A program made the position numbers and the translations under genes. A stretch of 64,000 nt of DNA, taken from the sequence record PV806175.1; one strand, 5' to 3'. Shown piece after piece: positions 41,978 through 54,987 of this stretch (positions within the stretch are counted from its first letter, which is position 1; every line of letters begins with the position of its first letter). The stretch comes from Escherichia phage CCU7. The notes beneath the pieces are model-generated. The model worked only from the letters and a program-made list of their open reading frames with translations. It did no database searches and had not been told where the DNA came from.

Positions 41978-42265
41978 ATGAAAACCTATAAAGAATTTAT
42001 ATCACCTGATGCTAACGTTTCTACTCTGACTGAAGCAACCCTTACTTCCGAAGTTATTAAAGCAAATAAAGGACGTGAGGGCAAACCAATGATTAGTCTG
42101 GCTGACGGCGAAGAAGTAAAAGGTACTGTTTACTTAGGGGATGGATGGTCTGCTAAGAAAGATGGCGCTACTATTGTTATCTCTCCGGCTGAAGAGACTG
42201 CACTGTTTAAAGCTAAGCACATTTCTGTAGCTCAGCTTAAAATTATTGCAAAAACTCTTCTGTAA
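41978..42265 (+). CDS. ipI: internal protein I-like (capsid-targeted, injected)
   Basis: 95 aa (T4 IPI 95 aa); N-terminal MKTYKEF capsid-targeting sequence with LTE protease site near residue 19; early promoter upstream. Confidence 0.65.
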   Translation: MKTYKEFISPDANVSTLTEATLTSEVIKANKGREGKPMISLADGEEVKGTVYLGDGWSAKKDGATIVISPAEETALFKAKHISVAQLKIIAKTLL

Positions 42266-42268
42266 GTA

Positions 42269-42307
42269 GTTTACATGCCGATAGGACTATGTTATAATAG
42301 TCCTATC
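42269..42307 (+). promoter_or_regulatory. early promoter with stem-loop (PeSL-like)
   Basis: GTTTAC, 18-bp spacer, TATAAT inside loop of perfect 10-bp inverted repeat GATAGGACTA / TAGTCCTATC. Confidence 0.6.
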
Positions 42308-42336
42308 AAAACAAAATGAGTAAATGGAGAAATAAA

Positions 42337-42522
42337 ATGAAACGCGCTGAACTGATTCGTAATGTTGCTGTAGTAATTGCTTCAATGGCTTTTAGCTTTT
42401 CGATGTTTGTAGGATTCATTTGTGGACTACTGACAACAACTGAAAACTCTATCTCATTGGTAGTAGCATTTCTAATCGGCTTAATCGCTATCGTTATGGA
42501 TAAAATTGCAAAAGGTGAGTAA
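42337..42522 (+). CDS. small membrane protein
   Basis: ATG with GGAG RBS; two hydrophobic segments; early promoter + stem-loop upstream. Confidence 0.5.
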   Translation: MKRAELIRNVAVVIASMAFSFSMFVGFICGLLTTTENSISLVVAFLIGLIAIVMDKIAKGE

Positions 42523-42885
42523 ATGAAATATCATGTATATGCAGATTTTGAAGCAAATCCTTCTAAAGACCCTGATTGTCGTTTGATACGCAGACCATTT
42601 GATTCAGCAGCTCAAGCATGGGCTTGGATTAAATCTAAATCGCCTGGTTATATGTTCTTTGAAGTAGTCGATGACAATGGTACACTGCATCCAGAACCTA
42701 CAGAAACTATTAATTTCCTTCTGTTTGCTGGTTATGACTGTTATCCTCTTGGTGGTATTGATGATCTTGTTGCTACAGGAAAAACTGTTGAAGCTCTTCG
42801 TGAAATCTACAAAAATGCTGAAGAAAATTTTGACTGGTACCAGATTGTAAATGCACATACTTTTGAAGCGGTGGAACACTCATGA
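42523..42885 (+). CDS. hypothetical protein (120 aa)
   Basis: ORF tightly packed after upstream gene; no recognisable motif. Confidence 0.5.
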   Translation: MKYHVYADFEANPSKDPDCRLIRRPFDSAAQAWAWIKSKSPGYMFFEVVDDNGTLHPEPTETINFLLFAGYDCYPLGGIDDLVATGKTVEALREIYKNAEENFDWYQIVNAHTFEAVEHS

Positions 42886-43172
42886 TTCTTTATGCTAAAG
42901 TAAAATCTGTCGAGAATGGATACGAAAGCGATCAACGTGCAGCTAAAGCATTGATCGATGATTATGGCATTTTAACATATTTTGAAGTTGAAAAGGTTTA
43001 CATTGACCGTTCGTCTTCACAGGTTAAATTACTCTGTGAAGATGATAAATTTAACACAGTTAACTTTGATTTCTTTATTGAAACAGAAAAAGGCCCTCTT
43101 GAATATGATATTTTCAAGAATCCTTTGAAATTACGTTGCATTGAATATAATTACATTAATATGGTACGGTGA
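42882..43172 (+). CDS. hypothetical protein (96 aa)
   Basis: ORF with 4-nt overlap to upstream ORF. Confidence 0.5.
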   Translation: MILYAKVKSVENGYESDQRAAKALIDDYGILTYFEVEKVYIDRSSSQVKLLCEDDKFNTVNFDFFIETEKGPLEYDIFKNPLKLRCIEYNYINMVR

Positions 43173-43176
43173 TTAA

Positions 43177-43692
43177 ATGAATATTCGATTAGGCAGTACA
43201 ATTCCTAAGGGCTACGTAATTGATGTCACTACCTATGAAAGTGATGGTGACAACTATAAAACCAAAACATTGTTTGAAGTGGAAGAGCATGAGCTCCAAC
43301 AGTTTAAATATCTCTTGAAGAAATTTAAGAGCCGTCATTCTAGCACCAAAGCCGAACGTTATTGCGGTAATACACCATTCGGTCGTTGCTCGCTTATTAT
43401 CTACGAATATCTGGTTGAAGGACTGTTCTCAGACCAACTCCAACCGGAATTTATTAAAAAGGTCTTTGGCATCGAAGTAGACCTTGGTGATAAATCTGAA
43501 GAAGACGAAGCCCGCGTATTCGACCTGTTCTTTGTGAAAGGCGATGAGATATCTCAAGGACTTATTGATATTCTTGGCTATGCTTCTGAATACTATGATT
43601 ACGATTTCTTGCGTGTAGTTGAACGTGTCGAATTTGCTTATATTGAAGAAGAAATCGTTTTGCCAACCGTTAAAATGATTGATTTGCTTTAA
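43177..43692 (+). CDS. hypothetical protein (171 aa)
   Basis: ORF in same-strand array upstream of the tRNA genes. Confidence 0.5.
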   Translation: MNIRLGSTIPKGYVIDVTTYESDGDNYKTKTLFEVEEHELQQFKYLLKKFKSRHSSTKAERYCGNTPFGRCSLIIYEYLVEGLFSDQLQPEFIKKVFGIEVDLGDKSEEDEARVFDLFFVKGDEISQGLIDILGYASEYYDYDFLRVVERVEFAYIEEEIVLPTVKMIDLL

Positions 43693-43771
43693 GAATTATG
43701 TGTTATTATTAATTCATACCCTCTATTACCAAAGGTGCTCTAAAGTGCCTTTCATAATAGAAAGTTATTTA

Positions 43772-43845
43772 GGCCCTGTAGCTCAATGGTTAGCAGCAGT
43801 CCCCTCATAAGGGAAAGGTTACCAGTTCGAATCTGGTCTGGGCCA
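43772..43845 (+). tRNA. tRNA with CAT anticodon (Met or lysidine-modified Ile)
   Basis: Cloverleaf by hand: acceptor GGCCCTG/CTGGGCC (1 mismatch), anticodon loop CTCATAA, T-arm ACCAG-TTCGAAT-CTGGT; no encoded CCA. Confidence 0.7.
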
Positions 43846-43851
43846 TATATT

Positions 43852-43928
43852 CGAGGCATAGCTCAATTGTATGGAGCAACGGACTTCTAATCCGTAGGTT
43901 GAAGGTTAGAATCCTTCTGTCTCGACCA
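43852..43928 (+). tRNA. tRNA-Arg (anticodon TCT)
   Basis: Cloverleaf by hand: acceptor CGAGGCA/TGTCTCG, D-stem GCTC/GAGC, anticodon stem ACGGA/TCCGT with loop CTTCTAA, T-arm GAAGG-TTAGAAT-CCTTC, encoded CCA. Confidence 0.8.
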
Positions 43929-53115: not shown

Positions 53116-53604
53116 ATGAATATATTTGAAATGCTTCGTAATGACGAAGGTCTTAGACTGACTTTATACAAAGACACTGAAGGCTTTTGGACGATTGGCA
53201 TAGGCCATTTAGTAACAAAGAACCCGTCTTTAGCCGTAGCTAAAGCTGAACTTGACAGAATGATCGGTCGTAAATGCAACGGTACAATTACCCTTGATGA
53301 GGCTGAAAAGCTATTTAATGAAGACGTCGATAAAGCCGTTCGCGGAATCTTGGGTAATGCTAAACTTAAACCGGTATATGATTCTTTAGACGCGGTTCGT
53401 CGATGTGCATTGGTCAATATGGTCTTCCAAATGGGTGTAGCAGGCGTTGCTGGTTTTACTAATTCTCTTCGTATGCTTCAACAGAAACGTTGGGATGAAG
53501 CGGCAGTAAATCTCGCCCAATCTAAATGGTATCGTCAGACACCTAATCGCGCGAAACGCGTAATCTCAACATTTAAAACAGGAACTTGGAAAGCGTATAT
53601 ATGA
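53116..53604 (+). CDS. e: endolysin (T4 lysozyme)
   Basis: N-terminus [32 protein letters not shown] matches T4 lysozyme; about 162 aa; RBS lies in a hairpin as in T4 gene e. Confidence 0.95.
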
Positions 53605-53882
53605 AAACATATAGTGAATTTTTATCAGAATCTATTCTTAACGAAGCTACTGACACATTTGCAACTAAGCTAGGTGCAGCTTTGGTTGAAGCCGAAAGTC
53701 TATTAGCACGTATTTCTGAACTTGCTAGTAAGATAGATACTCGCAAATTTGAACGTACCAGCGATATCGCTAAGCTTGAAGCCTTGTTACGTATGTGCGA
53801 TAAACCGGAAGAAATCGCTAAGAACGGCTCGCTGATGAAACAACGTCTTGAAAAATATATTTCAGGCGCTTCAGAAAAATAG
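53601..53882 (+). CDS. internal-protein-like protein with capsid-targeting sequence
   Basis: 93 aa from ATG overlapping e stop; N-terminus [10 protein letters not shown]. Confidence 0.55.
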
Positions 53883-53883
53883 T

Positions 53884-53936
53884 GTTTACTTCCTCCAAGG
53901 GTTTTGATACTATACATTCATCAACTACTTGGAGGA
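53884..53936 (+). promoter_or_regulatory. early promoter whose stem-loop sequesters the denV RBS
   Basis: GTTTAC, 18-bp spacer, TACTAT; 9-bp inverted repeat TCCTCCAAG / CTTGGAGGA with GGAGG RBS in the 3-prime arm. Confidence 0.55.
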
Positions 53937-53940
53937 AATT

Positions 53941-54354
53941 ATGACTCGTATCAATTTAACACTTGTTTCTGAACTGACCGATCAACATCTTATGGCTGAG
54001 TATCGTGAATTACCACGCGTATTTAGTGCAGTCCGTAAACATGTCCAAAACGGTAAACGTGTAAAGGATTTTAAAATCTCTCCAACATTTATCTTAGGCA
54101 CAGGTCACGTAACATTCTTTTACGACAAACTTGAATTTTTACGTTTACGACAAATCGAGCTAATCGCTGAATGCTTGAAACGTGGTTTCAAAATCAAGGA
54201 CACGACAGTCCAGGATATTTCCGACATCCCTGCCGAATTTCGTAATAATTATGTCCCGTCCGAAGCGTCCGTTGCGATAAGTCAAGCACGCTTAGATGAA
54301 AAAATTGCTCAACGTCCTACTTGGTACAAATACTATGGTAAATCAATTTACTAA
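53941..54354 (+). CDS. denV: pyrimidine-dimer DNA glycosylase (endonuclease V)
   Basis: 137 aa; N-terminus [12 protein letters not shown]...[13 protein letters not shown] matches T4 DenV as recalled; GGAGG RBS. Confidence 0.9.
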
Positions 54355-54360
54355 GGAAAA

Positions 54361-54621
54361 ATGAAAATGTATCAAGAATTTATCATTGAAGCAGATGCCA
54401 AAGGTCCTAAATTTAAAGTTAAAGCTTTCATTGGTGATGCCGAAGACTTTGGCTCATTAAAACGTAATGGGTATTCTTTCTTAGGTGGCGATGGTAAAGA
54501 AATCAACACCTATGCAAAACGTAGTGAAATTGCTTATGTTGTAGTAAATCCTAAAGTAGATGTTGACGATATTGGATACGATTTTAACAACTTCGGAATT
54601 ATTTCTGGCGGTAAAGCTTAA
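54361..54621 (+). CDS. internal-protein-like protein with capsid-targeting sequence
   Basis: 86 aa; N-terminus MKMYQEFIIE. Confidence 0.55.
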   Translation: MKMYQEFIIEADAKGPKFKVKAFIGDAEDFGSLKRNGYSFLGGDGKEINTYAKRSEIAYVVVNPKVDVDDIGYDFNNFGIISGGKA

Positions 54622-54624
54622 ATT

Positions 54625-54654
54625 GTTTACGCTTAAGTATTAATATGGTATAAT
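54625..54654 (+). promoter_or_regulatory. early promoter upstream of IPII-like gene
   Basis: GTTTAC, 18-bp spacer, TATAAT. Confidence 0.55.
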
Positions 54655-54684
54655 TACTCTATCAAAACAACAAGGAAACAAAAA

Positions 54685-54987
54685 ATGAAAACATATCAAG
54701 AATTTATTACTGAAGCGCGAGTGAGTGCAGGTAAATTAGAAGCCGCTATAAATAAAAAGGCCCATTCATTTCATGATTTGTCCGATAAAGACCGTAAGAA
54801 ACTTGTAAGCCTTTATATTGACAAAGAGCGTATTCTCGCTCTTCCTGGCGCTAATGAAGGTAAACAGGCCAAGCCTTTGAATGCTGTCGAAAAGAAAATT
54901 GATAACTTTGCTTCTAAATTCGGTATGTCTATGGATGACCTTCAGCAAGCGGCTATCGAAGCAGCTAAAGTAATTAAAGGTAAATAA
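54685..54987 (+). CDS. internal protein II-like (capsid-targeted)
   Basis: 100 aa (T4 IPII 100 aa); N-terminus MKTYQEFITEA; early promoter upstream. Confidence 0.6.
   Translation: MKTYQEFITEARVSAGKLEAAINKKAHSFHDLSDKDRKKLVSLYIDKERILALPGANEGKQAKPLNAVEKKIDNFASKFGMSMDDLQQAAIEAAKVIKGK

Follow-up and report, generated by a model that had tools for sequence, protein, structure and literature searches.

Six short open reading frames (ORFs) of Escherichia phage CCU7 begin with nearly the same ten residues and continue into different bodies, raising the question of whether they form one class of capsid-packaged, injected proteins and how much of that class is new. We addressed this question in a 64-kb stretch of the phage genome (PV806175.1), analysed at its full length and called the window below, for which an initial annotation had proposed that the six N-termini are capsid-targeting leaders like those of the phage T4 internal proteins (IPs). 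Variable bodies behind a conserved capsid-targeting leader, injected to counter restriction, constitute an established system (Repoila 1994 as cited in later papers; Rao & Black 2010; Silas 2025), and the class itself has long been known, since 1994. Our analysis indicates that the observation is real and its interpretation correct, yet that it restates this system. The increment is two members that public annotation leaves unlabelled and a probable third cassette locus, which they occupy.

The shared leader

The six ORFs, named here by the position of their first nucleotide, all lie on the plus strand of the ORF list (Table 1). In a six-frame scan of the window allowing any start codon, the pattern M[KR]x[YF]x[ED]F[ILVM] matched only these six, and the back-translated leader ATGAAR NNN TAY NNN GAR TTY HT gave 6 matches, compared with 0 in each of 100 dinucleotide-preserving shuffles. 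Met1, Lys2, Tyr4, Glu6 and Phe7 occur in 6/6 ORFs, as does Ile or Leu at position 8. Thus the six ORFs, their coordinates and the residues Tyr4, Phe7 and Ile/Leu8 stood as first described, whereas Glu10, and with it L/I-x-E at residues 8–10, is found in 5/6, the exception being 41978 (MKTYKEFISP). In T4, packaging requires no more than the initial ten residues of IPIII, with positions 4 and 7 serving targeting and positions 8 and 10 serving processing (PMC9026906). The comparisons therefore support the proposal that the leader of the six ORFs is the T4 capsid-targeting sequence: two ORFs are direct orthologues of IPI and IPII, two fall in families labelled as internal head proteins, and the key residues are conserved.

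The window also encodes the prohead protease gp21, the scaffolding core protein gp22 and the major capsid protein gp23 (Table 1), as well as gp67 and gp24. The gp23 protein carries SFLTE↓AEIGG (the arrow marks cleavage) at the known T4 maturation cleavage position, and gp24 carries LLRE↓S. The FLTE↓A context of gp23 recurs in the leader of 45266 (EFLTE↓A), the corresponding context in 44676 being EFLTE↓Q. The leader has affinity for the gp22 scaffolding core (PMC9026906).

The window region is 95–98% identical to phiC120, phiE142, PhAPEC2, RB69 and Shf125875 (Mosigvirus, Straboviridae), and by this identity the phage is a Mosigvirus, an RB69-like T-even phage. Its gene order is that of T4 reversed: 1, 57A, 57B, ipI, trna.4-2, tRNAs, the rnaC/rnaD homologue, e.8-e.2, nudE, e, denV, ipII and vs.8.

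Four genes of recognised families

The internal-head identities of 41978, 54685, 53601 and 54361 mean that four of the six genes are already recognised by public annotation; 44676 and 45266 are still unlabelled. ORF 41978 is 87% identical to T4 IPI over its full length, and its residues 20–95 match Pfam IPI_T4 (PF11634) with 166.7 bits (cut-off 25; E 1e-49). The same residues correspond to the whole 76-residue chain of PDB 2jub (2jub_A 1–76; E 2e-41), which is processed IPI (IPI*), and this match fixes the cleavage of 41978 after Glu19. Its L-x-E site accordingly lies at residues 17–19, as LTE↓A where T4 IPI has ITE↓A, predicting a mature form of 76 amino acids (aa). Orthologues are annotated as internal virion protein in phiC120 and RB69, and RB69 IPI differs from 41978 at only 2/95 residues. 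RB69 IPI protects RB69 from GmrSD (PMC6024577), and processed T4 IPI inhibits the GmrSD enzyme of CT596 (PMC3012670, PMC6024577), a target that 41978 would inherit by orthology.

ORF 54685 (leader MKTYQEFITE↓A; mature form of 90 aa, isoelectric point (pI) 9.7) is 93% identical to T4 IPII over 100 aa, matches phrog_7857 with E 4.5e-55 and belongs to a family annotated IpII in Shf125875; by orthology it would likewise inherit the GmrSD target of IPII. The earlier statement that only two of the ORFs match IPI and IPII was thus right and, both being full-length orthologues, even understated. T4 IPs are ejected into the host with the DNA (PMC3012670, PMC12373910); Ip1, Ip2 and Ip3 block a different GmrSD variant each and do not cross-protect (PMC12373910), and IPIII, which functions even when it lacks the leader, is required on strain ECOR17 (Srikant et al. 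preprint). The suggestion that the variable bodies are injected anti-defence effectors therefore agrees with the published view (PMC3012670, PMC12373910), whereas its description of the targets as unknown is outdated for IPI and IPII, which act on distinct GmrSD-type type IV enzymes.

The other two recognised genes belong to named families. ORF 53601 matches phrog_3499 'internal head protein' (E 2e-46) and is 88% identical to 'ip5' of vB_EcoM_VR25 and 47.6% identical to 'ipV' of PST and its T2 and T6 homologues; in phiC120 the RefSeq label of this family is 'internal head protein'. Its ATG overlaps the stop codon of the lysozyme gene e (ATGA), and its leader is followed by SILNE↓A, with a second site, ILNE, at residues 12–15. 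ORF 54361 (leader MKMYQEFIIE↓A) starts 6 nt past the denV stop codon, corresponds to RB69ORF125c and matches phrog_2667 'internal head protein' (E 9e-21), the RefSeq label that its family bears in RB69, SHSML-52-1, SP18 and S16.

The Ip5 family also showed variation in related genomes. In Tequatrovirus ime09 (JN202312, 28–285), an Ip5 gene with the note RB69ORF127c fills the ipI slot beside trna.4; because the Ip5-like gene follows e in the window, this body family evidently moves between the classical loci. In RB69 (AY303349, stretch 13034–13315), the 53601 orthologue ORF127c has a scrambled leader, MKTYMNFYQNLS, arising from a −1/+1 frameshift pair, and among 233 phage records this stretch was matched at ≥99% by two RB69 records only. 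Also in RB69 (AY303349, stretch 4247–4809), the 45266 orthologue is split into ORF149c and ORF148c. Both the scrambling and the split are probably sequencing errors or mutations of the laboratory strain.

Two unlabelled genes at a third locus

ORF 44676 (leader MKSYAEFLTE↓Q; mature form of 144 aa, pI 9.7) is present in 511 phage records. Its annotated features in the 40 records listed read 'hypothetical protein', as does every name given to the 15 members of its 90% cluster. ORF 45266 (leader MKTYAEFLTE↓A; mature form of 177 aa, pI 9.5) is present in 164 phage records, all ≥85% identical, and is called 'hypothetical' or 'Phage protein' in the 40 listed; the names of 15 members of its 90% cluster are hypothetical, uncharacterized or 'Phage protein', with the exception of one member bearing an evidently spurious enzyme name. 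The exact sequences of both are public (phiE142 ALY07966, PhAPEC2_133), and both score on phrog_2280, a family of unknown function.

In mature size and charge, 45266 is close to IPIII (183 aa, pI 9.7), despite having no sequence similarity to it. The bodies of the six ORFs were unrelated to one another by BLASTP, as had been proposed, with one possible exception. A body-only BLASTP comparison of 44676 with 45266 gave no match and a first hhalign run gave a probability of 2%, whereas an enriched profile aligned their C-terminal helical regions, at the C-terminal hairpin, with an hhalign probability of 63% (E 7e-5). The two proteins share the architecture modelled for 45266 (described below) and possibly a distant C-terminal homology. 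A distant relationship of 44676 to IPII outside the leader was rejected, as its only signal was a 22-residue BLASTP match (E 0.004, one comparison) and it scored 2% with hhalign.

The leader outlasts divergence of the bodies. Among homologues of 44676 with 74–78% identity, variation is seen at positions 3, 5, 6 and 9 and none at positions 1, 2, 4 and 7; L/I-x-E↓A is kept in 4/5 of them, P0002 having a one-residue insertion and MTE↓A, and the cleavage site is sometimes doubled, as FLNE..VLNE↓A. The sole distant homologue of 45266 (31% identity), found among 1.84 billion representatives, starts MITFNEFLNESEMINE↓A and retains MITFNEFLNE...INE↓A. Retention of the leader in these diverged homologues argues for selection on the leader itself.

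Relative to T4, the window carries an extra 1.2 kb immediately behind the rnaC/rnaD homologue, and this insertion consists of 44676 and 45266. Three copies of the rnaC terminator hairpin border the two genes (Table 1), and their stems differ by compensating changes. RB69 is without 44676, the junction lying in the repeated hairpin, and Shf125875 is without 45266, whereas phiC120, phiE142 and Tequatrovirus ime09 contain both. Nucleotide identity to ime09 is 95.4% for 45266, 75.6% for 44676 (66% in its first half) and 74% for ORF150c. The near identity of 45266 amid diverged neighbours points to a mosaic and to recent transfer between genera. Silas et al. 2025 name two Ip loci (PMC12373910), and this third one may therefore be undescribed so far.

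Several observations concern the immediate surroundings. The homologue of rnaC/rnaD, the small stable RNAs of T4 (species 1 and 2), lies at 44286–44630; it shares 92% identity with T4 and 96.5% with ime09, and is conserved far better than the adjoining protein genes. Rfam found two tRNAs only in 41800–46500 and gave no match for the rnaC/rnaD homologue. The two tRNA genes, at 43772–43928 (Met-CAU and Arg-UCU), stand where T4 has eight. An ORF at 43899–44291, similar to RB69ORF150c, and tRNA-Arg overlap at the 3' end of the latter; the ORF therefore probably starts farther downstream than listed.

Cassette exchange

Modular shuffling of IP genes was reportedly described by Repoila et al. in 1994. 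We mapped cassette junctions against RB69, Shf125875, phiC120 and T4. At the ipII locus, identity between the window and RB69 is 97% across 54361, the promoter-like site and the leader of 54685; homology to RB69 and phiC120 breaks off within this 30-nt leader or at its end, and returns 75 nt past the stop codon of 54685. Between these junctions RB69 has ORF124c and ORF123c, both leader-bearing, and phiC120 has an ipIII-like gene and an ORF123c-like gene. The promoter-like site at 54626 and the leader are the conserved left flank of an exchangeable ipII cassette, and in RB69 the same promoter and leader head another body, that of ORF124c.

The ipI locus varies in a similar manner. An extra Ip7-like cassette stands before ipI in RB69 (ORF156c) and after ipI in Shf125875, whereas the window contains ipI alone, preceded by the upstream module that in RB69 also precedes ORF156c. 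Here the junction falls within ~55 nt comprising the ribosome-binding site and leader. At the third locus, 44676 and 45266 are each present or absent among close relatives, with junctions in the repeated terminator. Polymorphism between conserved flanks thus marks the classical loci, holding 41978, 53601, 54361 and 54685, and the analogous third locus alike. The pattern at the ipI and ipII loci is the modular shuffling for which later papers (PMC3012670, PMC12373910) cite Repoila et al. 1994.

Expression signals

Upstream of both ipI and ipII we found a sigma-70-like site whose −10 element is extended. The site of ipI lies ~30 nt upstream of the gene, and its −10 element is inside a 10-bp hairpin (41923–41949; −13.2 kcal/mol, z −4.5). 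Hairpins occur at the same place at T4 ipI and RB69 ipI with different stem sequences, and this combination of equal position and differing stems suggests a conserved structure. A further hairpin (42280–42307; −16.9 kcal/mol, z −6.3) encloses the −10 element of a sigma-70-like promoter upstream of trna.4. Before 44676 and 45266 we found AATAAATA, at −37 and −46, respectively, which may act as weak late promoters.

Table 1. Coordinates of leader-bearing genes, associated signals and head genes in the window
Feature	Coordinates	Strand	Evidence
Sigma-70-type promoter-like site, TTTACA-17-TACTAT, upstream TG	41915..41949	+	Promoter scan
ipI orthologue, 95 aa	41978..42265	+	Pfam IPI_T4, T4 IPI identity, PDB 2jub
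Terminator hairpin copy 1, end of rnaC/rnaD homologue	44600..44630	+	Repeat family D2, fold −21.3 kcal/mol
Unannotated leader-bearing ORF, 154 aa	44676..45140	+	ORF list, leader scan
Terminator hairpin copy 2, between 44676 and 45266	45145..45175	+	Repeat, fold −17.5 kcal/mol
Unannotated leader-bearing ORF, 187 aa	45266..45829	+	ORF list, leader scan
Terminator hairpin copy 3, after 45266	45832..45862	+	Repeat, fold −17.7 kcal/mol, z −4.6
Ip5-family internal protein, 93 aa from ATG	53601..53882	+	phrog_3499, ip5/ipV identity
Internal head protein family, 86 aa	54361..54621	+	phrog_2667, RefSeq labels
Sigma-70-type promoter-like site, TTTACG-17-TATAAT, upstream TG	54626..54654	+	Promoter scan
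ipII orthologue, 100 aa	54685..54987	+	T4 IPII identity, phrog_7857
gp23 major capsid protein	9877..11445	-	Pfam Gp23, ORF translation
gp22 scaffolding core protein	11463..12275	-	Pfam T4_CASP, E 1.5e-89
gp21 prohead serine protease	12309..12950	-	Pfam Peptidase_S77, E 1e-106

Searches with the bodies

The four bodies other than IPI and IPII have predicted mature forms of 8–20 kDa with pI 6.4–9.7, and Pfam and PDB searches, together with a fold search for 45266, revealed no similarity of 44676, 45266, 53601 or 54361 to any characterised inhibitor. A PDB sequence search of the bodies matched only IPI, and in Pfam only IPI_T4 passed its cut-off; weak matches to Cytochrome b562 and DUF7412 fell below theirs and were rejected. 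Homologue families were very small and found in T-even phages only, amounting to 9 and 12 clusters and to 6 matches in 1.84 billion representatives.

Structure prediction of the bodies, advocated in the initial annotation, was run on two of them and yielded nothing usable. The model of 54361, built from a 7-sequence alignment, had a predicted local distance difference test score (pLDDT) of 43. The AlphaFold model of 45266, built with no alignment, reached a pLDDT of 63 and a predicted template modelling score of 0.31. At this low confidence, the body of 45266 is modelled as all-helical, its Pro/Lys-rich linker being disordered and its C-terminal hairpin long, and Foldseek found no match to the model in BFVD or PDB at E ≤ 0.001. 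In the literature, Petrov 2010 contained no mention of IPs, and a search on Ip4–Ip8 gave inositol-phosphate papers only.

Proposed mechanism and alternative explanations

We propose that these six genes make up the IP set of an RB69-like T-even phage, very probably loaded, processed and injected as follows. During prohead building, Tyr4 and Phe7 of the ten-residue N-terminal targeting sequence would bind the gp22 core. Once the shell is closed, gp21 would cut after the Glu of L/I-x-E at residue 10 (residue 19 in IPI; in the Ip5-like 53601 possibly also residue 15), releasing a body of 8–20 kDa, mostly basic, within the head. The bodies would then leave the head together with the DNA and act ahead of all phage gene expression. 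As orthologues of the T4 proteins, IPI and IPII would block two different GmrSD-type type IV enzymes that attack DNA with sugar-modified hydroxymethylcytosine (hmC), and the other four bodies would most likely inhibit further variants of such first-line nucleases. Diversification would proceed by cassette exchange, with the promoter, ribosome-binding site and leader on the left and the terminator or conserved flank on the right serving as recombination sites. The sequence comparisons establish which genes these are, that the leader is conserved, that protease and scaffold are encoded and where the cassette junctions fall, whereas for the four non-T4 bodies the packaging, processing, injection and targets are inferred.

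Four results weigh against this proposal. In the 100 nt preceding each of the six genes there is no canonical T4 late promoter, TATAAATA, so that their timing is read only from the sigma-70-like sites, the AATAAATA variants and the coupling to e and denV. Our literature search found no virion proteome or N-terminal data for this phage or close relatives. The bodies gave no informative fold or family match in Pfam, PDB and Foldseek. Finally, no reproducible activity against 15 GmrSD groups was recorded for Ip4–10, IPs from other T-even phages (PMC12373910), leaving it unproven that all IPs inhibit GmrSD.

For the third locus we offer a tentative extension, whose chances we judge to be close to even but not quite so good. 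According to this extension, 44676 and 45266 are two new IP families at an undescribed cassette locus between rnaC/rnaD and e.8, are packaged and injected like Ip1–3, and, in the case of 45266, moved recently and almost unchanged between Tequatrovirus and Mosigvirus. The near identity of 45266 across genera that differ in DNA sugar raises the possibility that its target does not read the sugar; it could be a first-line defence that is not of the GmrSD type. As a separate observation, one of the five major virion bands of phage HY01 was assigned to a 'hypothetical protein' whose identity is given in a figure only (PMC5201272). HY01 has a 44676 homologue and related Tequatroviruses such as ime09 have both genes, so the band could be one of these proteins.

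A broader alternative, which we regard as rather unlikely, is that all four uncharacterised bodies are injected anti-defence proteins directed at systems other than GmrSD, for example BREX-associated nucleases, type IV enzymes of another kind or abortive-infection sensors that DNA entry triggers. The lack of reproducible Ip4–10 activity on the 15 groups fits this idea, as does the near identity of 45266 in Tequatrovirus, with glucosyl-hmC, and Mosigvirus, with arabinosyl-hmC (PMC6024577). However, targets are known for just three IPs, each of which acts on the GmrSD family (PMC12373910), and GmrSD diversity far exceeds the panel tested.

It is improbable, in our judgement, that 44676 and 45266 are not capsid cargo at all and act in the infected cell after ordinary expression, their leader-like N-termini stemming from a copied module of promoter, ribosome-binding site and leader or from a translational preference for an A-rich MK(T)Y start in these AT-rich genomes. 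Such an origin would be consistent with their position outside the two IP loci of the literature (PMC12373910), with the records examined, which never label them internal proteins, and with their upstream regions, which unlike those of ipI and ipII hold only AATAAATA and no sigma-70-like site. In the IMG/VR contigs sampled, moreover, the same motif heads a few large enzyme-like ORFs that seem unlikely cargo (for example an 836-aa helicase/methylase-like and a 358-aa ligase-like ORF). Yet the targeting and cleavage positions are kept across diverged homologues while neighbouring positions vary, the FLTE↓A cleavage context is identical to the gp23 maturation site of the same phage, the mature size and charge of 45266 match those of IPIII, and the cassettes are polymorphic among close relatives like the classical IP loci.

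A purely physical role of the packaged and injected non-T4 bodies (neutralising DNA charge, organising DNA or aiding ejection), with diversity reflecting weak constraint and not an arms race, would suit the small, basic character of most mature forms (pI 8.1–9.7), the ~1000 IP molecules embedded in packaged T4 DNA (PMC3012670) and the lack of reproducible anti-GmrSD activity of Ip4–10, but it is improbable given that all three tested T4 IPs are specific restriction inhibitors, IPIII even without its leader (PMC12373910; Srikant et al. preprint), that 45266 keeps 95% nucleotide identity across genera where ORF150c has 74% and 44676 76%, and that presence or absence of single cassettes in near-identical phages fits host-specific selection.

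Wider occurrence and significance

A degenerate leader pattern searched against IMG/VR viral contigs gave at least 136 matches on at least 120 stretches. Among the matches listed, 95 stand at true ORF starts (an upstream in-frame stop within 0–29 codons and no earlier ATG) and head ~60 unrelated bodies. Many of these loci are on environmental metagenome contigs, and 49 of the 120 stretches listed have T4-like core genes in common with the window. Among the matches listed, the largest cluster has 14 very basic members of ~165 aa beginning MKTYKEFMQESSLSRIKSKSDKGG..., at least 5 of its loci lying on a stretch with a UvsW-like helicase. One leader-bearing body of ~315 aa looks like an ADP-ribosyltransferase. 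Use of the leader may therefore extend far beyond the approximately ten Ips of the literature.

Because the class is well known, the conceptual gain is small, but the results have some practical value. In T-even phages applied to therapy and biocontrol, IPs act as host-range determinants, and targets are known only for Ip1–3. Flagging the abundant 44676 and 45266 families as probable injected proteins, along with the third cassette locus, provides candidates for target screens of the kind that served Ip2 and Ip3.

Comparison with known systems

The window shares with T4 IPI, IPII and IPIII the leader, L/I-x-E processing and two neighbourhoods, 57B-trna.4 and e-denV. It differs from T4 in having no ipIII, in having denV between its cassettes and in carrying an extra 86-aa cassette before ipII; the slot directly after gene e is occupied by ipIII in T4 and by the Ip5-like 53601 in the window, and T4 has no insertion after rnaC/rnaD, where the window holds 44676 and 45266. 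The T-even cassettes from Ip4 onward, as Repoila et al. 1994 is cited, likewise combine unrelated bodies with a conserved leader, vary in number, order and identity, and have flanks that serve as exchange points. Relatives of the window phage carry Ip7-like, ORF124c-like and ORF123c-like cassettes. In contrast to the classical T-even cassettes, 44676 and 45266 occupy a third place and are bordered by repeated terminator hairpins.

Outside the T-even phages, accounts of the P1 Dar proteins describe capsid-packaged, DNA-delivered anti-restriction proteins, as proposed for the window IPs, and those of the ejection proteins of giant phages such as SPN3US describe capsid-packaged proteins that are likewise delivered with the DNA, their propeptides being removed in SPN3US by the prohead protease. 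As far as these accounts extend, the Dar and giant-phage ejection proteins have no sequence relation to the window IPs, use other targeting signals and are much larger. A parallel to the leader comes from engineered T4 fusions to GFP, a nuclease and other cargo (Mullaney & Black 1996, as described in PMC9026906), in which the ten residues load and cleave an arbitrary body. Because ten residues suffice there, any leader-bearing ORF is candidate cargo; those fusions are artificial constructs, whereas the genes of the window are natural.

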